A stretch of 64,000 bases of DNA from an uncultured Candidatus Saccharibacteria bacterium. GTDB taxonomy: Bacteria > Patescibacteriota > Minisyncoccia > Minisyncoccales > MHMH01. A program made the position numbers and the translations under genes. The DNA lies in contig CAYZXA010000001.1 of NCBI GenBank assembly GCA_964482335.1, positions 24,983 through 88,982 of the forward strand, written 5' to 3'. The notes beneath the pieces are model-generated. The model saw only the letters and a list, made by a program, of their open reading frames with translations, searched no databases and had not been told where the DNA came from. This document shows positions 22,889-57,032 of this stretch, in pieces (positions within the stretch are counted from its first letter, which is position 1; each line of letters starts with the position of its first letter).

Positions 22889-23380
22889 ATGCAAAGAGAT
22901 AGATTTAGAAAATTTGGAAAGGATAAACCAAAGGATGAATTTGAATCCAAGCTTTTGGATTTAGCTCGCGTTTCTCATACCCGGGCTGGCGGCAGGAAGA
23001 TGAGATTTAGAGCAGTCATTGTCACCGGTGACAAGAAAGGTAAAGTAGGTTTGGGCATAGCTAAAGGCTCTGATGTCCGGTTAGCCATTGAAAAAGCAAC
23101 CCGCCTTTCTAAGAAATATTTAATAGAGGTGCCTATTGTTGAAGATAGTATTCCCCATGAGGTAGAAGCTAAAGTCGGGGCAGCTCGTGTTCTATTAAGG
23201 CCTCAGAGGAAAGGCAGGGGATTGGTGGCTGGAGGCACTGTCAGAGTAGTTTGTAATTTAGCTGGTATTAAAAATATTTCTTCTAAGATATTGGGTAGGA
23301 CCGGCAATAAGATTGGTAATGCCAGAGCAACTATGGAAGCATTAAAAAAATTAAAAGCTCATGCAACTCCACGAACTTAA
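22889..23380 (+). CDS. rpsE: 30S ribosomal protein S5
   Basis: VSHTRAGGRKMRFRAVIVTGD...GIAKG. Confidence 0.95.
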   Translation: MQRDRFRKFGKDKPKDEFESKLLDLARVSHTRAGGRKMRFRAVIVTGDKKGKVGLGIAKGSDVRLAIEKATRLSKKYLIEVPIVEDSIPHEVEAKVGAARVLLRPQRKGRGLVAGGTVRVVCNLAGIKNISSKILGRTGNKIGNARATMEALKKLKAHATPRT

Positions 23381-26492: not shown

Positions 26493-26951
26493 ATGATTGC
26501 TGAGTTTAAAATTCTTTTGATAGCCATGTCGCCGATTTTGGAATTAAGGGGTTCTATTCCTATTGCTCTGGGTGTTTATCAAATGCCGTTTTGGTCTTCT
26601 TTTTTAATTTCAATCGTTGGTAACTTGATTCCTGTTCTTTTGCTTCTTTGGTTGCTGGAGGCTGTTTCTAAATATTTGAGTTCTCACTTTTACTTCTTTA
26701 ACCGTTTCTTTACTTGGTTGTTTGAAAGAGCAAGGAGAAAACATACAGATAAGTTTGAGCGCTGGAAAGAATATGCTTTGGTTGTTTTGGTAGCCATTCC
26801 TTTGCCTTTTACTGGTGCTTGGACAGGTTCTTTGTGTGCCTTTGTCTTTGGCATTCCTTTTAAAAAAGCTTTTCCTTTAATTAGTATTGGTGTAGTTATT
26901 GCTGCTGTTATAGTTACCTTAACTACTTTAAGTATTTTCATAGTTACATGA
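26493..26951 (+). CDS. small membrane protein, COG2426 / putative small multidrug-export family
   Basis: ILELRGSIPIALGVY motif and four TM segments. Confidence 0.55.
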   Translation: MIAEFKILLIAMSPILELRGSIPIALGVYQMPFWSSFLISIVGNLIPVLLLLWLLEAVSKYLSSHFYFFNRFFTWLFERARRKHTDKFERWKEYALVVLVAIPLPFTGAWTGSLCAFVFGIPFKKAFPLISIGVVIAAVIVTLTTLSIFIVT

Positions 26952-27568
26952 AGCCCTTAATCGTTGCCAATTGGAAAATGAATCCCTCAAGCTTAAAAGA
27001 AGCTAAACTTCTTTTTAATCGTGTGAAAAAAGCTGATGGAATAATTTGTCCACCGTTTGTTTATTTGTCCAGTCTGAAAGCTACTGGCGCTCAGGATGTT
27101 TTTTGGGAAAATAGAGGAGCTTTCACTGGTGAAGTTTCGGCTTTAATGTTGAAGAATTTAGGAGTGAAATACGTTATCGTCGGTCATTCGGAAAGAAGAA
27201 AGCATTTTAAAGAGACAGACGAGATGATTGCTAAAAAAATAAAGGCTGTTTTAAAAGTGAGTTTAAAGCCGATTTTATGCATTGATAAGCTTTCTCAAAT
27301 TCCCAAAAAGATTAAAGGAAAACTAATTGTAGCTTACGAGCCCCTCTTTGCTATTGGCACAGGAAAAGCTTGTAGTCCTTTGAGAGCAAAAAAGATGAGG
27401 CTCAGCATTAAAAAGATTGTTGGCGGCAAGGTGCCTATTTTATATGGCGGCAGTGTCAATTCCCAGAATGCCAAATCATACATTAAACAGGCTGGCTTTC
27501 AGGGCTTATTGGTTGGTGGAGCTTCTTTGAAACCTCAAGAATTCATTGACATTGTTAAAAATACTTGA
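26948..27568 (+). CDS. tpiA: triosephosphate isomerase (compact form)
   Basis: VANWKMN, VGHSERR, AYEPLFAIGTG and GGSV motifs. Confidence 0.85.
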   Translation: MKPLIVANWKMNPSSLKEAKLLFNRVKKADGIICPPFVYLSSLKATGAQDVFWENRGAFTGEVSALMLKNLGVKYVIVGHSERRKHFKETDEMIAKKIKAVLKVSLKPILCIDKLSQIPKKIKGKLIVAYEPLFAIGTGKACSPLRAKKMRLSIKKIVGGKVPILYGGSVNSQNAKSYIKQAGFQGLLVGGASLKPQEFIDIVKNT

Positions 27569-27607
27569 CTTATTTGCTTTTTTACAATAGAATATTAGGA
27601 GATAAAT

Positions 27608-28123
27608 ATGCAAGACATTCTTAATAACGGTCATTTTTATAATCCAACGCAGGGAAATTTGACATTCGACCAGATGGTTAAAGCATTGTTCCAATACATG
27701 GGAGAGAAGCCTGACAAGTCATACGAAATTATTGTTGGCTGCGATTCTTCTTCTGGAGAGGAGCCTAATTTCCCTTTGGCAGTTGTTGTTTTAAGAAAAG
27801 GCGAAGGAGGCAGGTTTTTTCTTAAGAGAATAAAATATCCTCCTGCTGAGAGAAAGTTTTTCAATTGGAAGTCAAGGATTTTGAATGAAGTTATGCTATC
27901 TTGTGAGCTTGCTTTATCCTTAAGGGAGAAAGTGGAAAAAAGAACCAAAAGAGCTGACTCCTTTGATTTCGAATTTCGTTACATCCATGCTGATGTTGGA
28001 GAAAACGGCCAGACAAAAGATATGATAAAAGAAGTGACTGGCCTTATTCGTGGTAATGGTTTTGAACCAAAGATTAAGCCAGAGTCATATGTTGCTTCAG
28101 TCGTCGCGGACCGCTACAGCTAA
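27608..28123 (+). CDS. YkuK/DUF458-like RNase H-fold protein
   Basis: YEIIVGCDSS...FPLAVVVLRKGEGGRFF resembles DUF458. Confidence 0.45.
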   Translation: MQDILNNGHFYNPTQGNLTFDQMVKALFQYMGEKPDKSYEIIVGCDSSSGEEPNFPLAVVVLRKGEGGRFFLKRIKYPPAERKFFNWKSRILNEVMLSCELALSLREKVEKRTKRADSFDFEFRYIHADVGENGQTKDMIKEVTGLIRGNGFEPKIKPESYVASVVADRYS

Positions 28124-28130
28124 AATAATT

Positions 28131-29087
28131 GTGGCTATGTCAGGCGGTGTTGATTCTTCTGTTGCTGCGGCCCTTTTGAAAAGGGCTGGTTTTAATGTGA
28201 GCGGAGTTTTTATAGAACTCTATGATTTGCCTTGCCTCAGAGAAGCAGAAAAAAGAGCAAAAAGAGTTGCTAAGGCTTTAAAAGTTCCCCTCCGAGTTTT
28301 AGACTTGAGGAAGGAATTTAAAAAGGAGGTTATTGATTATTTTCTAGCTGAATATCGGGCTGGCCGTACTCCTAATCCTTGCATAGTTTGTAATAAGAAA
28401 ATAAAGTTTAATTTTGGTGGATGGATGGCTACAGGTCATTATGTCAGAAGGGTTGGTTCTAAATTGCTGCAAGCCAGAGATAAAGAAAAAGATCAGTCAT
28501 ATTTTCTTTGGCAGCTTGCTCAGAAACAATTGAAGCATATTTTGTTTCCTAACGGACACTATACCAAGCCTGAGATAAGAAAATTAGCCAAGGAATTTAA
28601 GTTGCCAGTATTTGAAACTCCTGAATCTCAGGAAGTTTGCTTTGTCCAAAAAACCACAGAACAATTCTTATCTCGTTATATTAAAAGGAAGCCAGGTTAC
28701 ATAATTGATGTTAAAGGAAAAGTTTTAGGTCAGCACCAGGGTTTGCTTTTTTACACCATCGGACAGAGAAAGGGGATAGGATTGAGTGGCGGTCCTTTCT
28801 GGGTTTTGAAAAAAGATTTAAAGAAGAATCTTTTGATAGTGACTAAAAAAGAAAAAGATTTATTGAGGAAAGAATTAACTTTTAAAAATGTTAATTGGAT
28901 TTCTGGAAAAGCTCCAAAACTGCCTTTGAAAGTTAAGGCAAAAATTAGATACCGTTCAGCACTTAGCCCAGCCACTGTCTATAAAAACAAAGTTATCTTT
29001 AATCGACCCCAACGTGCTATAACCCCCGGCCAATCAGTGGTATTTTATAGAGGTGAAGAGCTTTTAGGTGGTGGGGTGATTAGATAA
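28131..29087 (+). CDS. mnmA: tRNA 2-thiouridine(34) synthase MnmA
   Basis: PP-loop AMSGGVDSS, TPNPCIVCN, ATGHY and DQSYFL. The start is GTG 28131 or ATG 28137. Confidence 0.88.
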   Translation: MAMSGGVDSSVAAALLKRAGFNVSGVFIELYDLPCLREAEKRAKRVAKALKVPLRVLDLRKEFKKEVIDYFLAEYRAGRTPNPCIVCNKKIKFNFGGWMATGHYVRRVGSKLLQARDKEKDQSYFLWQLAQKQLKHILFPNGHYTKPEIRKLAKEFKLPVFETPESQEVCFVQKTTEQFLSRYIKRKPGYIIDVKGKVLGQHQGLLFYTIGQRKGIGLSGGPFWVLKKDLKKNLLIVTKKEKDLLRKELTFKNVNWISGKAPKLPLKVKAKIRYRSALSPATVYKNKVIFNRPQRAITPGQSVVFYRGEELLGGGVIR

Positions 29088-29141
29088 TTATCTCTTAATA
29101 ACAAGACATGCTGAAAGAGGAGGCTTACCTAGTTTTCCACA

Positions 29142-29170
29142 TTGACAAGAGGTCGTGGTTTTCATAAGAT
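29142..29170 (+). promoter_or_regulatory. consensus-like promoter P1 in the mnmA-alaS spacer
   Basis: TTGACA, 17 nt, TAAGAT. Confidence 0.5.
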
Positions 29171-29177
29171 TGATTAA

Positions 29178-29286
29178 AGCACGTTTTTTATAGGAGATCT
29201 CCTTTCTTTGACTGGTCAGGAGATGTCCTACCAAGTTTAGGGGGTTCTGTGTTTTTAAACTACCTTTCAGAACCCCCTTTGTGTTT
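29178..29286 (+). ncRNA. candidate small RNA of about 105 nt
   Basis: Bounded by P1 and a GGGGGTTCTG/CAGAACCCCC hairpin plus T-rich tail. Contains AGGAGATCTCCT and AGGAGATGTCCT repeats. Confidence 0.3.
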
Positions 29287-29324
29287 AGTAGTTATCATTT
29301 TGTGACGAATTAAAGGATTAGGAC

Positions 29325-29353
29325 TTGACAAAGCTGAGAAGGCATGCTATAAT
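29325..29353 (+). promoter_or_regulatory. perfect consensus promoter P2
   Basis: TTGACA, 17 nt, TATAAT. Confidence 0.55.
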
Positions 29354-29459
29354 ACAGACGTAGAGAGGGTCAATAACTTTTCTATATTATAATTTCACAG
29401 ACGGCTCTCTCTTCGAGAGTCGTTTGTTAGTTTAAAAAAAATAATAAGGGGGTGCTGAG

Positions 29460-29549
29460 ATGGCATATACTGTCATAAGTGGAGTGTTCTTCCCGCTTCG
29501 AAATAGGGAAGACCTAGAAGAAGCTATCGCCTGCAAGAATGAAAAGTAG
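29460..29549 (+). CDS. 29-aa orphan small ORF
   Basis: MAYTVISGVFFPLRNREDLEEAIACKNEK*, preceded by AAGGGGGTG 7 nt upstream. No homology recognised. Confidence 0.3.
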   Translation: MAYTVISGVFFPLRNREDLEEAIACKNEK

Positions 29550-29710
29550 GCGAGAGCAAGGAGGATTTATTAAATATTATGTTAAATCCAATATAAATCC
29601 TCCGATCTCTCAAGTTCAAGATATCCATCGTGAATTTGAGAGTTGGGAAATGAACATTGAAAAATACGAATTTCGTGCCGCTCATATAAAATAGAAAGGA
29701 GGTAAGTCTA

Positions 29711-30064
29711 ATGAAAACTAGTAAGATTCTTGAAAGACTATTAGAAAGTGAACCTGGCGCTGTGGTAGTTGAGGAATGTTCCAAAAAGTTTATTCTATGG
29801 ACTCTTTCAAATTCTTTCCGGAAGGAGAGAATTCTTAAAGAGCTTAGGACAAACTTTCCTAGTTTAGAAAAACAGGATTTACTATTAAAACTAGGAACTT
29901 ATCCATTATTATCCACGGCTAATAAGTTTGTTGCAAATGCTAGATACAATTCTTCATCTTCTTCCATTCGGCAGCTTTTCTTGCTGCCCTTAGTGAAAAA
30001 GAAGATTCCTCGACCAAGACGTCTTCTAGTGCGGCAGTCAAAGAGGAGGGTGATTACAACGTAA
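29711..30064 (+). CDS. 117-aa orphan protein with a Ser-run and a very basic C-terminus
   Basis: Strong RBS AAAGGAGGT 7 nt upstream of the ATG, and a terminator follows. No recognisable family. Confidence 0.45.
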   Translation: MKTSKILERLLESEPGAVVVEECSKKFILWTLSNSFRKERILKELRTNFPSLEKQDLLLKLGTYPLLSTANKFVANARYNSSSSSIRQLFLLPLVKKKIPRPRRLLVRQSKRRVITT

Positions 30065-30098
30065 TCTCCCTCCTCCATTTTAAACAGATGAGGTTAGA

Positions 30099-30154
30099 GG
30101 TGCTTTCCGCTTTTCGAGGCTCTCTCGAAGCGGAGGGCACCTTTGGCCTTTTTT
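30099..30154 (+). terminator. intrinsic terminator
   Basis: Long imperfect hairpin, GGTGC..CCGCTTTTCGAG / CTCGAAGCGG..GCACC, then TTTGGCCTTTTTT. Confidence 0.6.
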
Positions 30155-30170
30155 GATTGTTTGAGATTTG

Positions 30171-30199
30171 TTGCTTAAAAGCTGTTAATTGGATATAAT
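30171..30199 (+). promoter_or_regulatory. putative alaS promoter
   Basis: TTGCTT, 17 nt, TATAAT. Confidence 0.5.
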
Positions 30200-30211
30200 A
30201 TAATAATTGAA

Positions 30212-31963
30212 ATGACTTCCAAGAAACTACGGCAAGAGTTTTTAAGTTTTTTTAAGAAAAAAGGACACAAAATTGTACCCTCATCTTCACTTTTGCCGAC
30301 TGATCCTTCTGTTTTATTTACTACTGCTGGCATGCAGCAGTTCAAGGAATATTTTTTAGGCAAGAAATCTCCTTATGGTAAAAAAACAGCCTCTTGCCAA
30401 AAATGTTTCCGTACTTCTGATATTGATATAGTTGGAGATATTTCCCATCTAACTTTCCTTGAAATGCTGGGAAACTTCAGTTTCGGCGGTTACTTTAAGA
30501 AAGAAGCAATGGCATTGGCTTTAGAACTTTTAACAAAACAATACAAAATTCCAATTGGAAAGCTATGGTTTACCTATTTTAAGGGAGATAAAGAAATGCC
30601 AGAAGATGAAGAATCAAAGAAAATCTGGCAGAGTTTAGGCGTTTCTTCAAACCAAATTTCTGGTTTTTCTAGAGAGGATAATTTCTGGGGGCCGACTGGC
30701 CAAGCTGGTCCTTGCGGGCCAACCACCGAGATTCATTATGAACTGACTTCTCAACCCTGTGAAAAAGGAAAGAAATGTCTGCCCAATTGTAGTTGCGGTC
30801 GCTTTCTTGAGATTTGGAACTTGGTTTTTAATGAATATCATCAGGATAAAAATGGAAGTTTAACTTTGTTGAAGCAAAAAGGAGTTGATACTGGCATGGG
30901 TTTGGAAAGATTGGCGGCGGTCTCGCAGGGTGTGCCTTCAGTTTTTGAAACAGATTTATTCAAACCACTTTTAAAAGAGATTGAGAAAATTTCTCCAGAA
31001 CCCTACAGTCAGAATCCCAAACCTTACCGCATTATTGTTGATCATATTAAAGGTGTTGTTTTTCTAGCTGCTGAAGGCATTTTTCCATCAAATGTTGAAC
31101 AAGGTTACATTTTAAGAAGGATTTTGAGGAGGATTATAAGACTTGGCAGATTACTCAATTTTCCCAGCAACTTTTTAATTCCTTTAGCTAAAAAAGTTAT
31201 TGAAATTTATCAAGACATTTATCCAGAATTGAAGAGGCAGGAGCCCGATATATTAACCGTTATCCAGAAAGAAGAAGAAAAGTTTTCTAAGACCTTAGCT
31301 AAAGGCCTGAGGCAGTTTGAAAAGATCGCCACCTTAGGAGATATTGATGGCCAGGATGCTTTTCATCTTTTCGATACTTATGGTTTTCCTTTAGAGGTGA
31401 CAGAAGAGTTAGCTAGAGAGAAAGGTTTAAAGATTGATAAAAGAGGGTTTGAGGAAGCTTTTGAAAAACATCGGGCTGTTTCCAGGGCAGGCCGAGAGAA
31501 GAAATTTGGTGGAGTGGGCAAGGAGGCCGGCTTTGAATCAGCTAAGCTTCATACGGCCACTCATTTGCTGCATGCGGCCTTAAGGAAAGTTTTAGGTTCT
31601 CATGTTAAGCAAATGGGTTCAGATATTACTCCAGCCAGGCTTCGTTTTGATTTTTCTCATCCTTGCAAAGTGACTGAAGCTGAAATCAGAAAAGTGGAAA
31701 AAATAGTAAATCAGAAGATCAAAGATGATTTACAGGTTGAAAAGATTGAAATGAAATATGAAGAAGCCTTGGAATTTGGTGCTTTAGCTTTTTTTAAAGA
31801 GAAATATCCTCTCAAAGTAACTGTCTATTCCATTAATGACTTTTCAAAAGAAATCTGCGCTGGTCCTCACGTTAAGAGAACTTCAGAGCTTGGCCACTTT
31901 AAAATTATTAAAGAAGAAAGCTCGGGAGCAGGTGTTAGAAGAATTAGAGCAATTTTAGAATAA
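30212..31963 (+). CDS. alaS: alanine--tRNA ligase, short form ending after the editing domain (no C-Ala domain)
   Basis: FTTAGMQQFK class II core, and HTATHLLHAAL and CAGPHV editing-domain motifs. 583 aa. Confidence 0.92.
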   Translation: MTSKKLRQEFLSFFKKKGHKIVPSSSLLPTDPSVLFTTAGMQQFKEYFLGKKSPYGKKTASCQKCFRTSDIDIVGDISHLTFLEMLGNFSFGGYFKKEAMALALELLTKQYKIPIGKLWFTYFKGDKEMPEDEESKKIWQSLGVSSNQISGFSREDNFWGPTGQAGPCGPTTEIHYELTSQPCEKGKKCLPNCSCGRFLEIWNLVFNEYHQDKNGSLTLLKQKGVDTGMGLERLAAVSQGVPSVFETDLFKPLLKEIEKISPEPYSQNPKPYRIIVDHIKGVVFLAAEGIFPSNVEQGYILRRILRRIIRLGRLLNFPSNFLIPLAKKVIEIYQDIYPELKRQEPDILTVIQKEEEKFSKTLAKGLRQFEKIATLGDIDGQDAFHLFDTYGFPLEVTEELAREKGLKIDKRGFEEAFEKHRAVSRAGREKKFGGVGKEAGFESAKLHTATHLLHAALRKVLGSHVKQMGSDITPARLRFDFSHPCKVTEAEIRKVEKIVNQKIKDDLQVEKIEMKYEEALEFGALAFFKEKYPLKVTVYSINDFSKEICAGPHVKRTSELGHFKIIKEESSGAGVRRIRAILE

Positions 31964-31970
31964 TAAATAT

Positions 31971-33203
31971 ATGGCAAATAAGAAAAAAGTTTTTGATGTT
32001 ATCCCGCCCAAAGAGGTAGAAATAGCTCCAGTCAAAAAACCAATCCGTCGGAGCAAGCCCCGACGCTTTGTCCCCAAAGCTCCGATTTTATCTATTGGTG
32101 CTCTCCTGCTCATAATTATTTTAAGCTATGTTTTTATTGAAGATAAAGCTACTTTAGAGATTTGGCCAGTTAAATCACAAGTACAGTTTGAAAAACAAGT
32201 AATGGTTGATATATCTCAAAATACAACGACTTCTATTCCTGGAGAAATAGTGACAAAAGAGCAATCTGCTTCTGCTAAGTTTCCCTCTACCGGCAGCAAG
32301 CTTAAAAGCGTTAAAGCTTCAGGCATAATCCGGATTTACAACGCTTACTCAACACTGTCTCAGATATTGATAGCAACAACTCGTTTTGTTTCCGATGACG
32401 GTAAGCTATTTCGTACGCCAAAAAGAGTGACTATTCCCGGAGGTCACTATGAAGGAGGCAGGTTAGTGCCTGGAGAAATTGATATTACGGTTGAAGCAGG
32501 GGAAGCGGGCGAGGAATACAATATTGGGCCTTCAACCTTTTCCATTCCTGGATTTGCCGGGACTCCAAGATACACTGCTTTTTATGCTAAGTCTTTTGAG
32601 CCGATGGTCGGTGGCATGAAGCAAGAGGTAGCCCAGGTAAGCCAGGAAGATTTGAATAAAGCTCAAGAAGCTTTAGAAGAAGAAGCTTTAACTAACTGCC
32701 AGACAGCTTTAGAAGAGTTCACGTCTTCCCAGAACTATATTCTTGTTGAAGAAGCTATAACTGGACAAATTACTCAAATTACCCCTCTAGCAGAAAAAGA
32801 TCAGGAAGTAGATAGTTTTGTCTTTCAGGTTAAAGCTCAAGTTAAAGCCTTGGTCTTTAAAAAACAGAATTTGGAAGATTTTGCCAAAAACTATATTCTT
32901 AGTCAGATTCCTCAAGAAAAAGAATTAGTTGCTGGAGCTTTGACTATTGGCTATTCGGTCAAAGATGTTGACTTAGAGGAAGGCAGAATGATTTTAGACA
33001 TTGAGATGACAAGTGAGATTTATTCAGCTATTGACGAGGTTTCCTTGAAAGAAGCAGTCAAAGATAAAAGACCAGATGAGATAAAGAGCGTTTTGGGAAG
33101 CTTCCCCGAGATTGATAAAGTTGGGGTAAGGCTCTGGCCGTTTTGGATAAACAAATCACCTGAAAATGCAGATAGAGTTAAGATTAGCTTAATCCTTGAC
33201 TAA
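31971..33203 (+). CDS. membrane-anchored extracytoplasmic protein, unknown function
   Basis: Basic N-terminus, one TM helix (ILSIGALLLIIILSYVFI), then a beta-rich domain of about 350 aa. Confidence 0.5.
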   Translation: MANKKKVFDVIPPKEVEIAPVKKPIRRSKPRRFVPKAPILSIGALLLIIILSYVFIEDKATLEIWPVKSQVQFEKQVMVDISQNTTTSIPGEIVTKEQSASAKFPSTGSKLKSVKASGIIRIYNAYSTLSQILIATTRFVSDDGKLFRTPKRVTIPGGHYEGGRLVPGEIDITVEAGEAGEEYNIGPSTFSIPGFAGTPRYTAFYAKSFEPMVGGMKQEVAQVSQEDLNKAQEALEEEALTNCQTALEEFTSSQNYILVEEAITGQITQITPLAEKDQEVDSFVFQVKAQVKALVFKKQNLEDFAKNYILSQIPQEKELVAGALTIGYSVKDVDLEEGRMILDIEMTSEIYSAIDEVSLKEAVKDKRPDEIKSVLGSFPEIDKVGVRLWPFWINKSPENADRVKISLILD

Positions 33204-34440: not shown

Positions 34441-35073
34441 ATGCAAAACAATAAATGTAAAATTTGTCGAAGACTTGGCGTTAAACTCTTTTTAAAAGGC
34501 GAGAGGTGTCTGTCGCCTAAATGTTCTTTGACTAGGAAACCTTATGCACCAGGCATGAAAAAGAGAACGAGAGGTCGTCGGGCCTTTTCCGAATATGCTA
34601 AAGAATTGAGAGAGAAACAAAAGCTTAAAAACTGGTACAATTTAAAAGAGAAGCAGTTTAGGAACTATGTCAAAGAAATTCTTAATAAAAGGAGTCACGT
34701 TGAAGACGCTTCCACTCTTTTAATTCAGAAGTTGGAGAGCCGTTTTGACAATGTTATTTTTCGTTTGGGTTTAAGCGGTTCCAGGCCCCATGCTCGCCAG
34801 ATGGTTTCTCACGGACACTTCTTGATTAATGGCAAGCCAGTTAATATTCCGGCCTATCAGCTAAAGAAAGGAGATAAAGTAAGCATAAACCTTGGTTCTC
34901 AGAAAAAGAAAGTTTTCAGTAATATAACTCCTTTGCTTAAAAAACATCAGACTCCTTCTTGGTTAAAAATTAGCCCTGAGAAATTAGAGGGAGAGGTGAT
35001 AGGCAAACCATCTTTGGAAGAATCCAGCCCTCCGGCTGAAATATCAACTATTTTCGAGTATTATTCAAGATAA
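34441..35073 (+). CDS. rpsD: 30S ribosomal protein S4 (zinc-ribbon form)
   Basis: CKICRRLGVKLFLKGERCLSPKC plus the S4 RNA-binding domain. Confidence 0.95.
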   Translation: MQNNKCKICRRLGVKLFLKGERCLSPKCSLTRKPYAPGMKKRTRGRRAFSEYAKELREKQKLKNWYNLKEKQFRNYVKEILNKRSHVEDASTLLIQKLESRFDNVIFRLGLSGSRPHARQMVSHGHFLINGKPVNIPAYQLKKGDKVSINLGSQKKKVFSNITPLLKKHQTPSWLKISPEKLEGEVIGKPSLEESSPPAEISTIFEYYSR

Positions 35074-35099: not shown

Positions 35100-35918
35100 A
35101 TGATTCCTTTACCTTCTCAACCTAAAATCATCGAAAAAAAAGGGAACCGAGCTCTTTTTGAAATTGAAAGCCTTTATCCAGGCTATGGTGTAACTGTTGG
35201 CAATACCCTGAGAAGAGTTTTACTTTCTTCTTTAGAGGGTAGTGCTGTTACTCAAGTTAAAATTAAAGGAGCACAGCACGAGTTTTCAACTATTCCCGGA
35301 GTTCTTGAAGATGTGGTTACTATTTTACTTAATATTAAGCAGTTGAGATTCAAGCTGCATACTGAAGAACCTCAAAAAGCAAAGCTCTCTATTAAAGGAG
35401 AGAAAATCGTTAAAGGTTCTGCTTTTGATTTGTCTCCTCAGGTAGAATTAATGAATAAAGATGCTCACGTGGCTACTTTGACTTCTAGAGGAGCTCATCT
35501 GGATATAGAAATTCTTATTGAGAAGGGGTTGGGCTATGAGCCGGTTGAGACAAGAAAAAAGGGAAAGCTGGAGATTGGCAGCATTGCCTTAGATGCTATC
35601 TTTACCCCAGTCAGAAAAGTCAGCTACCGGGTGGAGAGCATGCGGGTCGGGGAAAAAACTGATTTTGACAGGTTGTTTGTTGATTTGGAAACCGATGGCA
35701 CCTTGAGTCCGGAAGAGGCGGTGAGTCGGGCTTCTGACGTTCTGGTTCAACACTTTTCTTTATTGGGTGAAAGCTTGAAAAAGAAAGAAAAAACTTTACA
35801 TGAGAAAACTCTTGTTAAAAGAGTCAAAAAGGCAAAAAAGGCAAAGAAAGTTAAGAGAGCTGAAAAAAGTACTGCTAAAAAACATGCGAAAAAGAAAAAA
35901 AGGAAGAAAATTAAGTAG
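35100..35918 (+). CDS. rpoA: RNA polymerase alpha subunit: NTD only, with a lysine-rich tail replacing the CTD
   Basis: The NTD is clear (GYGVTVGNTLRRVLLSS, DAIFTPVRKVSY). After about residue 225 there are only K/A/E repeats up to the stop. Confidence 0.9.
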   Translation: MIPLPSQPKIIEKKGNRALFEIESLYPGYGVTVGNTLRRVLLSSLEGSAVTQVKIKGAQHEFSTIPGVLEDVVTILLNIKQLRFKLHTEEPQKAKLSIKGEKIVKGSAFDLSPQVELMNKDAHVATLTSRGAHLDIEILIEKGLGYEPVETRKKGKLEIGSIALDAIFTPVRKVSYRVESMRVGEKTDFDRLFVDLETDGTLSPEEAVSRASDVLVQHFSLLGESLKKKEKTLHEKTLVKRVKKAKKAKKVKRAEKSTAKKHAKKKKRKKIK

Positions 35919-36234
35919 GAAGAGAGATCAGCGCAGGGCACTATTGAAGGCATTGTCTAGTGCTCTTCTTTTGCGAGAAAAAATCAAGACAACAGAAGCT
36001 AAAGCTAAAGAAGCTTCTAGTTATACCGAGAAGTTCATTACTATTGCCAAGAAAGGCAATTTAGCTTCCAGGAGAAGACTTTCTTGTTTTTTCTCTCCCA
36101 AAATAGTTAAGAAGCTAATGGCTGAAATTGCTCCCAGATACAAGACAAGGAAGGGTGGTTATACTAGAGTTATTAAATTGGGTCCTCGAAGGTCAGACGG
36201 AGCAAGAATGGCTTTAATCGAGTTAGTAAAATGA
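35884..36234 (+). CDS. rplQ: 50S ribosomal protein L17
   Basis: MRKRKKGRKLSRKRDQRRALLKAL...GGYTRVIKLGPRRSDGA. Overlaps rpoA by 35 nt in another frame. Confidence 0.92.
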   Translation: MRKRKKGRKLSRKRDQRRALLKALSSALLLREKIKTTEAKAKEASSYTEKFITIAKKGNLASRRRLSCFFSPKIVKKLMAEIAPRYKTRKGGYTRVIKLGPRRSDGARMALIELVK

Positions 36235-36582: not shown

Positions 36583-37050
36583 ATGGCAGTTAAAAAAACT
36601 AAAAAGAAAACAAAACCTAAAGTAAAAGCTAAACCGAAAGCTAAACCGAAAGTTAAAGCTGAACGTTATATTGAAGCAGTTGGCAGGAGAAAAACAGCTG
36701 TGGCCCGAGTTAGGCTACAAGCTCAGGGCAAAAAAGAGTTTTTGGTCAATAACAAATCATTAGAAAGCTATTTTCCTATTTTAGAGTTGCAGCAGATTGC
36801 CAAAGAAGCTTTGGAGAAAACAAACTGCCTTGATAAGTTCAAGGTTTCAGCTAAAGTAAATGGAGGAGGTTTACATGCTCAAGCTCAAGCTTTGAGGCAC
36901 GGCATTGCCAGAGCCTTAGTAAAATTTAATTCTGAATTTCGCATGAGATTAAAAAAAACCGGTTTCTTAACACGCGATTCTCGCATGAGAGAACGTAAGA
37001 AGTTCGGTTTAAAGCGAGCTCGAAGAGCGCCTCAATGGAAAAAGAGATAA
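36583..37050 (+). CDS. rpsI: 30S ribosomal protein S9 with a KAKPK-repeat N-terminal extension
   Basis: GRRKTAVARV...GGGLHAQAQALRHGIARAL...RDSRMRERKKFG. Confidence 0.95.
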   Translation: MAVKKTKKKTKPKVKAKPKAKPKVKAERYIEAVGRRKTAVARVRLQAQGKKEFLVNNKSLESYFPILELQQIAKEALEKTNCLDKFKVSAKVNGGGLHAQAQALRHGIARALVKFNSEFRMRLKKTGFLTRDSRMRERKKFGLKRARRAPQWKKR

Positions 37051-37087: not shown

Positions 37088-37771
37088 ATGTTAAAAGAAC
37101 TTATAGACCAACTTTATCTGAACAGGCAAAGAGATAGAGAACAGCATCATTTTTATATTACTGATGCAGGCAAGTGTAACAGGGCTGTTTTTTTTAAGTT
37201 CAAAAATGTACCTAGAAAAAAAATGGATGCTAGGATTTTAAGATTGTTTGACCACGGCGACTACATACAGATGCAGATTTTGAATTCCTTGTTTAGTTTG
37301 GGGATTGTCAGGGCCTCTGAGATCCGTATACCTCCGCAGGAGCTTATTTCTGGCAGAGCAGATGCCATAGTTACCTTGAATAACGAGCTTTATGTGGTTG
37401 ATTTCAAAAGTATGAACAGCATGATTTTTAGGAAACTAGAAGAGCCAAAGGAAGAAAATGTCAACCAGATACAGCTCTATTTGCACTACTTTAAAATCCC
37501 AAAAGGCATACTGCTTTATATGAGCAAAGACACGTCGGAGTTAAAGGATTTTGTGATTCAGTACGATCCAAAGCTTGCGCAATCTCTTATAAAAGGGTTA
37601 GAGACTCTTGATAAAAAAATCAAAGCTAATATCATTCCTGAAAGGTTAACTAATTATCCGCAAAACTGGCAATGCCAGTACTGCCAGTTCAAAGATATTT
37701 GTTCGGCAGCTGGTAAAGGAGAAGTGAAATGGCAAGCGTTTAAAGACAAGATTGAAAAGCTAAGGAAGTAG
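37088..37771 (+). CDS. Cas4/RecB-like PD-(D/E)XK nuclease with a 4-Cys cluster, orphan
   Basis: N-terminal Cys (DAGKC), GRADAIV...VVDFKS...QIQLY nuclease motifs and a C-terminal CQYCQFKDIC. Confidence 0.6.
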   Translation: MLKELIDQLYLNRQRDREQHHFYITDAGKCNRAVFFKFKNVPRKKMDARILRLFDHGDYIQMQILNSLFSLGIVRASEIRIPPQELISGRADAIVTLNNELYVVDFKSMNSMIFRKLEEPKEENVNQIQLYLHYFKIPKGILLYMSKDTSELKDFVIQYDPKLAQSLIKGLETLDKKIKANIIPERLTNYPQNWQCQYCQFKDICSAAGKGEVKWQAFKDKIEKLRK

Positions 37772-55037: not shown

Positions 55038-57032
55038 ATGCTTAAAAAATTAAAAAAAGCCAAAAAAGCAAAACCAAAGAAGAAGCCAAAGGAAATGATT
55101 AAACCAAGAAAGAAGGTTGCTAAAGACACTACTTACGAAGCTAAGGATATTTATGTTTTGCAAGGATTGGAGCCGGTAAGGCGAAGACCAGGCATGTACA
55201 TTGGTTCAACTGGGACAGAAGGTCTTCATCATTTAATCTATGAAACGACTGACAATTCCTTGGACGAGGCCATTGCTGGTTACTGTAAAAACATTGATGT
55301 TATTCTAATGAAAGATAACAAAGTGAAGGTGACTGATGATGGCAGAGGTATTCCAGTATCCAAACACCCCCAGACTAAGAAATCAGCCTTAGAGACAGTT
55401 ATGACTACTCTGCATGCTGGAGCAAAGTTTGGCGGTAAATCTTATCAGATTGCCGGAGGCTTGCACGGCGTTGGTGTTTCAGTAGTTTGTGCTTTGTCTC
55501 GTTGGATGAGGGCTGAAGTTTGTCGGGATGGTATTAGATACTTCCAAGAATATTCTCAAGGTAAAGCGAAAACAAAAGTGAAAAAGGCTGGAAAATGCAA
55601 GCAGACCGGCACCACTGTTTTGTTTGAGCCAGACCCAGAAATTTTCAAAGAAATAAAGTTTGATTTAAAGAAAATTTTAGAACACCTTCGCCAACAAGCT
55701 TATTTAACTTCTGGTGTTAGAATAACAGTTATTGACAATAGGACTGCTGTTTCCCAAAACTACAGTTTTTATTTTGAAGGCGGGCTGAAGTCCTACATTA
55801 AATACTTAGTCCAGGGCGTAGTGCCGGTGCAGCAGAGTATCTTTTATACCAGCGGAGAAAAGCAAGGGATCCTAGTTGAGGCAGCTTTTCAATATACGCA
55901 GGAGAGGGAAGCGTATGAGGAAAGCTTTGCCAATAATATTAATACTGGTGAAGGCGGTTCTCATTCGACTGGCTTCAGAACTGCTTTGACTCGTTCCTTG
56001 AACGACTATGCTCGGAAAAACAACTTCATTAAAAACACAGATGACAATTTTAGTGGTGAGGATGTCAGAGATGGTTTTTCCGGAGTGGTGGCTGTCAAGC
56101 TAAGAGAACCTCAGTTTGAAGGCCAAACCAAAGCTAAACTTGGCAACCCCGAAGCAAAGGCAGCAGTTGAGGCAGTCATTACCGATGGTTTAGCTGATTT
56201 CCTAGAGAGAAATCCTCAGGATGCCAGAGCCATTATTGAGAAGTGTCTTTTGACTGCCAAAGCCAGAAAAGCAGCCCGAGCCGCTCGTCAGACCGTTTTG
56301 AGAAAAGGAGCTTTAGAGGGTTTGGCGCTTCCTGGTAAACTGGCTGATTGTGCTTCCCGTAAGCCAGAAGAGTCAGAGCTTTTTATTGTTGAGGGACCTT
56401 CTGCTGGAGGCTCATGTAAGATGGGTAGAGATAGACGATTTCAGGCTGTTCTGCCTTTGCGGGGAAAGATTTTAAACGTTGAGAGAGCCGGGCTAGACAA
56501 AGTATTATCTTCCCAAGAGATTAAATCTTTAATTATTGCTTTAGGTACAGCAATTGCCGAGGATTTTAATATTGAGAAATTAAGGTATCAACGTGTTATT
56601 CTGACCTTAGATGCTGATGTTGATGGTTCACATATTAGAACCTTGCTCTTGACTCTTTTTTATCGCTATTTCCAGTCAATTATTGAAAAAGGCTTTCTAT
56701 ACATTGCTCAGCCTCCACTTTATAAAATACAGTCAGGCAAAAGAATGGAGTATGCTTATACCGAGCAAGACAGGGCAGAGATTTTAAGTTCAATGAAAAA
56801 GGAGAATAAAGGCACTCCTTCTGTCCAAAGATATAAAGGTTTGGGAGAGATGAATCCTTTAGAGCTGTGGACAACGACCATGGATCCACAAAACAGAATC
56901 TTATTGAAGGTGATGATTGAAAATGCCAGAGAAGCTGATCATATCTTTGATACTTTGATGGGAGATGAGGTTTTGCCCAGAAAGAAGTTTATTCAGGCTC
57001 ATGCTAAAAAAGTTAAAAACTTAGATATTTAA
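55038..57032 (+). CDS. gyrB: DNA gyrase subunit B with a lysine-rich N-terminal extension
   Basis: GLEPVRRRPGMYIGS, the GHKL ATPase fold, a Toprim domain (EGPSAGGS, PLRGKILNVE) and QRYKGLGEM. Confidence 0.95.
   Translation: MLKKLKKAKKAKPKKKPKEMIKPRKKVAKDTTYEAKDIYVLQGLEPVRRRPGMYIGSTGTEGLHHLIYETTDNSLDEAIAGYCKNIDVILMKDNKVKVTDDGRGIPVSKHPQTKKSALETVMTTLHAGAKFGGKSYQIAGGLHGVGVSVVCALSRWMRAEVCRDGIRYFQEYSQGKAKTKVKKAGKCKQTGTTVLFEPDPEIFKEIKFDLKKILEHLRQQAYLTSGVRITVIDNRTAVSQNYSFYFEGGLKSYIKYLVQGVVPVQQSIFYTSGEKQGILVEAAFQYTQEREAYEESFANNINTGEGGSHSTGFRTALTRSLNDYARKNNFIKNTDDNFSGEDVRDGFSGVVAVKLREPQFEGQTKAKLGNPEAKAAVEAVITDGLADFLERNPQDARAIIEKCLLTAKARKAARAARQTVLRKGALEGLALPGKLADCASRKPEESELFIVEGPSAGGSCKMGRDRRFQAVLPLRGKILNVERAGLDKVLSSQEIKSLIIALGTAIAEDFNIEKLRYQRVILTLDADVDGSHIRTLLLTLFYRYFQSIIEKGFLYIAQPPLYKIQSGKRMEYAYTEQDRAEILSSMKKENKGTPSVQRYKGLGEMNPLELWTTTMDPQNRILLKVMIENAREADHIFDTLMGDEVLPRKKFIQAHAKKVKNLDI

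Follow-up and report, generated by a model that had tools for sequence, protein, structure and literature searches.

The C-terminal domain (CTD) of the RNA polymerase alpha subunit is regarded as near-universal in bacterial transcription: through it the polymerase recognises UP elements at strong promoters, such as those of rRNA genes, and a large proportion of activators dock on it. The subject of this analysis is rpoA, the gene for the alpha subunit, in a 64-kb stretch of DNA (contig CAYZXA010000001.1, positions 24,983 to 88,982; numbered here 1-64000 and referred to as the window), where the encoded protein lacks this domain and ends in a lysine-rich tail. The source is an ultra-small groundwater-type bacterium of the Candidate Phyla Radiation (CPR).

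Alpha subunits that consist of the N-terminal domain (NTD) only have been engineered before. E. coli alpha(1-235) and B. subtilis RpoA-del dimerise, assemble the core and support basal transcription (PMC4495994; PMC8321222), and in B. subtilis an RNA polymerase (RNAP) whose alpha lacks the CTD can still be assembled, bind DNA and elongate, while UP- and activator-dependent expression is lost (PMC4495994). The alpha subunit of the window is likewise NTD-only. The laboratory truncations are costly, however, as UP- and activator-dependent transcription, including that of ribosomal genes, is lost, whereas the truncation in the window is natural, fixed in whole lineages and accompanied by a long polycationic tail.

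Evolutionary loss of the CTD with retention of the NTD has been described for Hodgkinia, Tremblaya and Euglena plastids (PMC8321222). In contrast to these organelle-like genomes with their eroding polymerases, the window clade belongs to widespread CPR bacteria and has an NTD that is 76% identical among its members, and in the CPR proteins a basic tail or an AT-hook has taken the place of the CTD, which has not simply been eroded. Besides the known cases in endosymbionts and Euglena plastids, CTD loss in Parcubacteria is already touched on in print: one sentence in PMC8321222 states that it "is also present in Parcubacteria" and cites PMC4508563, where "polymerase" is absent from the main text and rpoA appears in the supplement only as an entry among the core genes. 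This sentence was the sole statement on alpha-CTD loss found in the literature on CPR, Patescibacteria or Parcubacteria. No description was found in the literature of a polycationic RpoA tail, of a switch in charge between CTD-bearing and CTD-less forms or of overprinting between rpoA and rplQ, and no paper was found that links the AT-hook with rpoA.

A homologous assembly platform with no alpha-CTD also occurs in archaea and eukaryotes as Rpo3 (subunit D) and Rpb3. The window RpoA has a weak match to the subunit D model NF001988 at residues 178-229; unlike Rpo3 and Rpb3, it has no archaeal-type features and is encoded in the bacterial context rpsD-rpoA-rplQ. For the tail, two further systems are relevant. 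In CarD, the HMGA-like domain, with its acidic part and AT-hooks, and a lysine-rich domain of the histone-H1 type can stand in for each other with function kept (PMC2919716; PMC4374960). The AT-hooks of Myxococcus CarD and the lysine-rich region of Anaeromyxobacter CarD may be regarded as analogues, each being a disordered, basic, AT-preferring tail on an RNAP-bound module, even though CarD is an accessory protein that binds the beta subunit and has four hooks, whereas the RpoA tail is part of a core subunit and has one hook or none. Sulfolobus Rpo13 has a lysine-rich disordered C-terminal tail that is required for non-specific binding of double-stranded DNA (PMC3479171). The window RpoA also carries such a tail on a polymerase subunit and by analogy may bind DNA in the same manner, but Rpo13 is an unrelated subunit located at the downstream DNA channel and not at the upstream face.

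Domain architecture of the window RpoA

A preliminary description of this DNA had reported an alpha subunit with a complete NTD and no alpha-CTD. The open reading frame (ORF) codes for 272 aa, exactly as quoted there, and both statements on its domains are borne out. Pfam finds the Rpb3/Rpb11-type dimerisation domain PF01193 at residues 26-219 (E=2.4e-20) and the bacterial insert domain PF01000 at residues 53-169 (E=3.3e-29, with the whole profile covered), and the protein scores 246.1 bits against TIGR02027, above the curated equivalog cutoff of 227.8. By TIGR02027 and PF01000 it is clearly an alpha subunit of the bacterial type. There is no Pfam match to the helix-hairpin-helix domain of the alpha-CTD (PF03118) even at E<=1, and profile matches end at ~229-260: of the NCBIfam rpoA models, which are 298-344 positions long, only positions ~1-230/260 are matched. 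The PRK05182 sub-models do not reach their cutoffs, since nothing in the protein corresponds to the CTD portion of these profiles.

Structural comparison gives the same picture. Solved RpoA structures in the PDB align to residues ~10-225 only (E=1e-55), and the NTD is modelled by AlphaFold2 (with a 49-sequence alignment) at a predicted local distance difference test (pLDDT) score of ~90. From the intact NTD and the 1e-55 similarity to solved NTDs, we infer that the protein assembles into the alpha2-beta-beta' core. Across 114 CTD-less homologues, the mean identity of the NTD is 76%.

The truncation is shared by the lineage. An identical 272-aa protein is found on 12 contigs, which stem from several independent samples of JGI and ENA, and by the source names of its closest homologues the organism belongs to Candidatus Nealsonbacteria (Parcubacteria, CPR). 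Among the 120 closest homologues (65-99% identity), 114 are without PF03118 and have a length of 249-289 aa; the CTD is retained in six (305-320 aa). Species-representative genomes were scanned as well, and of 80 related loci 32 code for a CTD-less RpoA and 48 for one with a normal CTD; two genomes of the CTD-less set are complete, CP179887.1 (689 kb) and AP024682.1 (562 kb). When 1.84 billion representatives were searched exhaustively, 51 of the best 150 proteins had no CTD as judged by our own hidden Markov model (HMM), a set that partly consists of fragments or of frameshift junk from high-GC assemblies. Alpha-CTD loss is therefore real, and the original observation is confirmed. In trees of the NTD, CTD-less forms branch next to CTD-bearing ones at many points, which implies repeated loss. 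A Fitch count on these single-gene neighbour-joining trees gives 9 changes among 81 sequences, a figure for which the backbone bootstrap is too poor to take it as the number of independent losses.

The gene lies in the canonical context rpsM-rpsK-rpsD-rpoA-rplQ, and homologous contigs share this gene order. The features of the locus are collected in Table 1.

Table 1. Features of the rpoA locus in the window
Feature	Position	Strand	Description and basis
rpsD (ribosomal protein S4), upstream of rpoA	34441..35073	+	PF00163 and PF01479
rpoA, RNA polymerase alpha subunit, CTD-less form	35100..35918	+	272 aa; ORF list, PF01193 and PF01000, TIGR02027
Alpha-NTD (dimerisation, beta/beta' assembly), complete	35100..35765	+	residues 1-222
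Polycationic tail, predicted disordered	35766..35915	+	residues 223-272; composition, low pLDDT, no Pfam or PDB counterpart
Dual-coding overlap, 35 nt	35884..35918	+	last 11 rpoA codons and stop / first rplQ codons; +1 frame relative to rpoA
rplQ (ribosomal protein L17)	35884..36234	+	116 aa; PF01196 E=1.9e-33; N-terminus conserved in relatives

A basic tail at the position of an acidic linker

The part of the protein that follows the NTD, GESLKKKEKTLHEKTLVKRVKKAKKAKKVKRAEKSTAKKHAKKKKRKKIK, contains 26 lysine or arginine residues (52%) and 4 aspartate or glutamate residues in 50 aa, which gives a net charge of +22. It holds the most cationic 30-aa stretch of the window when 78 ORFs are compared, ahead of the ribosomal proteins. 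The AlphaFold2 pLDDT is 53 for residues 231-240 and below 50 from residue 243 to the C-terminus, so that no fixed structure is predicted for the tail. By composition it fits the histone-H1-like, lysine-rich disordered tails of DNA-binding proteins, which are a compositional class and not a homology family. Both charge and length of the tail are kept among homologues although the sequence of its middle part varies.

The comparison with relatives shows how general this composition is. All 33 CTD-less proteins (33/33) have a net-positive segment after the NTD, with a length of 19-72 aa, a charge of +3 to +24 (median +11) and 40% lysine and arginine. The linkers of the 48 CTD-bearing relatives, by contrast, are acidic to neutral (-9 to +8, median -3, 29% aspartate and glutamate), and the difference in charge is significant with kinship between the sequences ignored (Mann-Whitney p = 9e-14). 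The rpoA ORF extends to within 15 nt of rplQ or past the rplQ start in 29 of the 33 CTD-less loci, and lysine-rich ends are also present in lineages without rplQ overlap, for example ...AKKPAKVKAKPKKKK and ...KKAPVKKKATAAKKKAPAKKVSSKKK. The frame of the tail stays open despite near-random divergence and despite lysine codons that are one mutation away from a stop, while the two other frames of the same DNA contain 58 and 103 stops per 1293 codons (4.5-8% per codon). Taken from these sequence comparisons, the tail appears to be under selection for charge and not for sequence.

Lysine-rich extensions can also be seen on other proteins of the window. GyrB (55038-57032, +) has an N-terminal extension before its ATPase domain, KKLKKAKKAKPKKKPKEMIKPRKKVAKD, with a net charge of +14 in 30 aa; a further DNA enzyme of this genome carries a polycationic tail in this way. 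The ribosomal proteins S9 (36583-37050, +) and L23 (16693-17145, +) are extended at the N-terminus, with Pfam matches that begin at residues 34 and 63, respectively, and L22 (18291-18704, +) is extended at the C-terminus, with a match that stops at residue 107 of 137.

An AT-hook in a separate CTD-less clade

A second type of tail is found in a separate CTD-less clade with the source names Candidatus Falkowbacteria and Patescibacteria group, whose proteins are 42-46% identical to the window protein. The clade includes P0261, P0277, P0290, P0216 and their homologues. PF03118 is missing in all 120 closest homologues of P0261, and in 108 of these 120 the last 14 residues contain ..KK[K/R]RGRPKK.., which is strictly conserved and follows an acidic spacer of variable sequence, ~35-50 aa long. 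By its sequence the KKRGRPKK end is a canonical AT-hook; P0277 and P0216 have PF02178 matches below threshold. In two loci of this clade (L090 2501-3379 and L092 2501-3412), rpoA and rplQ are separated by gaps of 18 and 57 nt without overlap, which means that the motif is conserved at the protein level.

AT-hooks bind the minor groove of AT-rich DNA, a target that resembles what the alpha-CTD reads in UP elements. The clade is, as judged from sequence, the most telling evidence that the RpoA tail is more than debris.

Overprinting of the tail end from rplQ

The start of rplQ can be placed by homology at ATG 35884 (MRKRKKGRKLSRKRD...), which gives a 35-nt overlap with rpoA up to its stop at 35918, just as the preliminary description had stated. 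The same bases encode the end of RpoA, ...KKHAKKKKRKKIK*, and the start of L17, MRKRKKGRKLSR. When the two frames of 35884-35918 are translated, both readings are conserved, as is expected for overprinting. The RpoA end KKHAKKKKRKK is found as KKH[A/E]KKKKRKKTK across homologues, and the last 13 RpoA residues are 72% identical among the 114 CTD-less homologues; the last ~11 tail residues are conserved because they are the rplQ start in the other frame. Since the L17 start is equally rich in lysine and arginine in CTD-bearing relatives, L17 is the earlier of the two constraints, and the RpoA end was overprinted on it later. In 14 of the 33 CTD-less loci the overlap is 32-41 nt long, whereas CTD-bearing loci (n=47) never overlap by more than 4 nt. 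The overlap of rpoA and rplQ illustrates cleanly how overprinting gives rise to a new protein end.

The conserved KKH[AE]KKKKRKKTK was also considered as a functional peptide motif and was rejected as evidence, as it is the rplQ start in another frame. Unique to this genome is an rplQ frame that stays open further upstream, to ATG 35800 (35800-35883, +), which would add 28 residues (MRKLLLKESKRQ...); relatives have stops in this frame, so the real rplQ start is at 35884.

A model for promoter contact without the CTD

In the simplest history, the CTD would have been deleted during evolution together with the rpoA stop codon and the short spacer before rplQ. The frame would then run for ~39 codons through A-rich sequence and for 11 codons into rplQ, and this would result in the 50-residue tail with its net charge of +22 and predicted disorder. 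The NTD would continue to carry out normal dimerisation and core assembly, and two tails per polymerase would emerge at the usual exit of the alpha linker, at the upstream face near -35. Here they could act as electrostatic tethers to the DNA backbone and to the narrow minor groove of AT-rich upstream promoter DNA, as a generic, sequence-tolerant stand-in for the UP-element contact, while activation of the class I type, in which regulators dock on the alpha-CTD, would be lost. The comparison of relatives indicates that the same solution may have arisen repeatedly in the CPR, either as lysine-rich tails or as an acidic spacer followed by an AT-hook as in the Falkowbacteria-like clade.

The preliminary description had proposed that the polycationic tail could give non-specific affinity for AT-rich DNA in place of UP recognition. 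This idea becomes much more plausible by comparison because all 33 tails are positive, as opposed to the mostly acidic linkers, and because an AT-hook is present in an independent clade. The lysine tails and the AT-hook of related lineages suggest a different way of gripping promoter DNA. From sequence and from the analogies given above, the best explanation overall, with a probability of roughly 0.6 for the explanation as a whole, would be that this is the genuine rpoA, and the only one detectable, in a genome of Candidatus Nealsonbacteria (Parcubacteria/CPR), that the CTD has truly been lost, and that a non-specific, AT-preferring DNA tether stands in place of the UP and activator contacts. 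The wider proposal is put forward more tentatively, at somewhat short of even odds: that the CTD was lost many times across the CPR and was each time replaced by a disordered tether, providing an upstream contact that is independent of activators, with the tail end of Nealsonbacteria overprinted from rplQ.

If this is true, promoter strength and regulation in the CPR would follow different rules, with fewer activator-dependent promoters and a reliance on AT-rich upstream DNA, and the CPR polymerases would represent natural experiments on the minimal function of the CTD. For annotation, short CPR rpoA genes should not be treated as fragments, which also bears on promoter prediction in the CPR.

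Alternative explanations

Several observations weigh against a selected DNA tether. The comparison of tail and linker charge ignores kinship, and the trees of a single gene have poor backbone support. A number of CTD-less lineages have short and only weakly basic tails (+3), and the window tail itself has no GRP, the AT-hook core being R-G-R-P with K/R on its flanks (PF02178). The lysine content of the sampled proteome is 11%, a setting in which the tail is a low-complexity sequence, and lysine-rich extensions are also carried by GyrB, S9, L23 and L22 in the window; mutational bias therefore certainly contributes to the tail. The middle of the tail has 27% identity to the window protein among the 114 CTD-less homologues and 22% after shuffling, and the sole positionally conserved segment of the tail is explained by the rplQ overlap.

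One alternative is that the tail is a neutral relic. The CTD would have been lost through genome reduction in organisms with few or no activators and UP elements, and the tail would be the old linker plus read-through into A-rich DNA and rplQ without any function, its lysines being a product of AT/purine bias and poly-A slippage. The lack of real positional conservation in the middle of the tail and the dual coding that accounts for its conserved end are in line with this, as are a tail DNA with 51% A, the lysine-rich extensions on several other window proteins and the absence of the CTD in endosymbionts and Euglena plastids (PMC8321222). Such a relic is nevertheless less likely than a tether. 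A positive tail of at least 19 aa is kept in 33/33 CTD-less lineages, while linkers of the ancestral type are acidic, and the frame has remained open to rplQ in spite of its near-stop lysine codons in DNA whose off-frames accumulate 58 and 103 stops in 1293 codons. Streamlined genomes are also expected to discard useless DNA, and an independent clade has fixed a canonical AT-hook at the same position.

Selection could also act on the mRNA, with the A-rich stretch and the rpoA stop inside rplQ serving translational coupling or unstructured initiation of rplQ, and the tail as a by-product. The conserved 32-41 nt overlap in 14 loci, the purine-rich tail region and the absence of an obvious Shine-Dalgarno sequence before rplQ would agree with this, but the explanation seems improbable since tails are still basic in many CTD-less lineages with gaps of 40-106 nt or overlaps of 1-4 nt. 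A-rich coding sequence moreover extends >100 nt upstream of rplQ, well past the initiation region, and the genes of the AT-hook clade have no rplQ overlap.

The CTD function could also be supplied in trans from elsewhere in the genome, by a stand-alone alpha-CTD, by a fusion to another protein or by a second full-length rpoA. The 64 kb of the window cover a portion of the genome, and two coexisting rpoA genes are described for Francisella (PMC3294249). No CTD was found (best E 0.4) when all six frames of the window were scanned with an HMM derived from the CTDs of the closest CTD-bearing relatives. When 5.8 billion proteins were searched with a CTD profile, 80 short proteins with PF03118 alone came up, which initially resembled stand-alone CTDs; of the five on the longest contigs, which were inspected, three are contig-edge fragments directly upstream of rplQ and two are frameshift pieces that lie directly after an NTD ORF in assemblies with many broken genes. 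These five were rejected as stand-alone CTDs, as they are contig-edge or frameshift pieces of ordinary rpoA genes. Among 26 metagenomic CTD loci, the NTD is directly upstream in all 21 that have enough upstream DNA, and the other five are at contig ends. As neither the window nor the inspected short proteins nor the metagenomic loci point to a stand-alone CTD, a domain in trans is very improbable.

A split CTD ORF at the locus itself was rejected too. The CTD (~63 residues) requires ~190 nt, but rplQ overlaps rpoA and begins only ~118 nt after the NTD ends, so that no indel or frameshift could restore a hidden domain; the preliminary description was right that there is no room for it. Although A-rich homopolymer runs are prone to error and rpoA does get split where assemblies are noisy, a sequencing or assembly artefact, be it a frameshift or a deletion, is refuted for this contig by the identical ORF in 12 contigs from independent samples, by an architecture common to >100 homologous clusters and 32 species genomes, and by the shortage of DNA before rplQ.

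In two metagenome assemblies (L081 and L082) many genes of the ribosomal operon are broken into short ORFs, S4, L17 and L13 among them, and rpoA is split into NTD and CTD. Broken ORFs of this kind are typical of error-prone long-read assemblies and are a source of false "stand-alone CTD" proteins in databases.

Other features of the window

The ribosomal super-operon of the window has further peculiarities. The genes for S5 (22889-23380, +) and L15 (23361-23789, +) overlap with no rpmD (L30) between them, an arrangement expected for the CPR. Between map and infA, non-ribosomal genes are located within the super-operon (26493-33203, +); they code for a small multidrug-export protein, triosephosphate isomerase, an RNase-H-like protein, an MnmA-type tRNA thiolase, alanyl-tRNA synthetase and a 410-aa protein whose sole match is a weak one to the GlxA beta-barrel. 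The alanyl-tRNA synthetase (30212-31963, +) has only 583 aa, with the catalytic domain and the editing-associated tRNA_SAD domain. No C-terminal domain was detected in this protein, and its short form may be another domain loss.

Directly after rpsI lies a gene for a PD-(D/E)XK/Cas4-like nuclease with the C-terminal cysteine cluster CQYCQFKDIC (37088-37771, +), and a CTD-bearing relative has a PDDEXK_1 gene at the same position after rpsI (L085 1489-2178). Over the whole window (1-64000), GC skew is positive in all 2-kb bins, and the + strand carries almost all of the long ORFs; the window is on one replichore, with its genes co-oriented.

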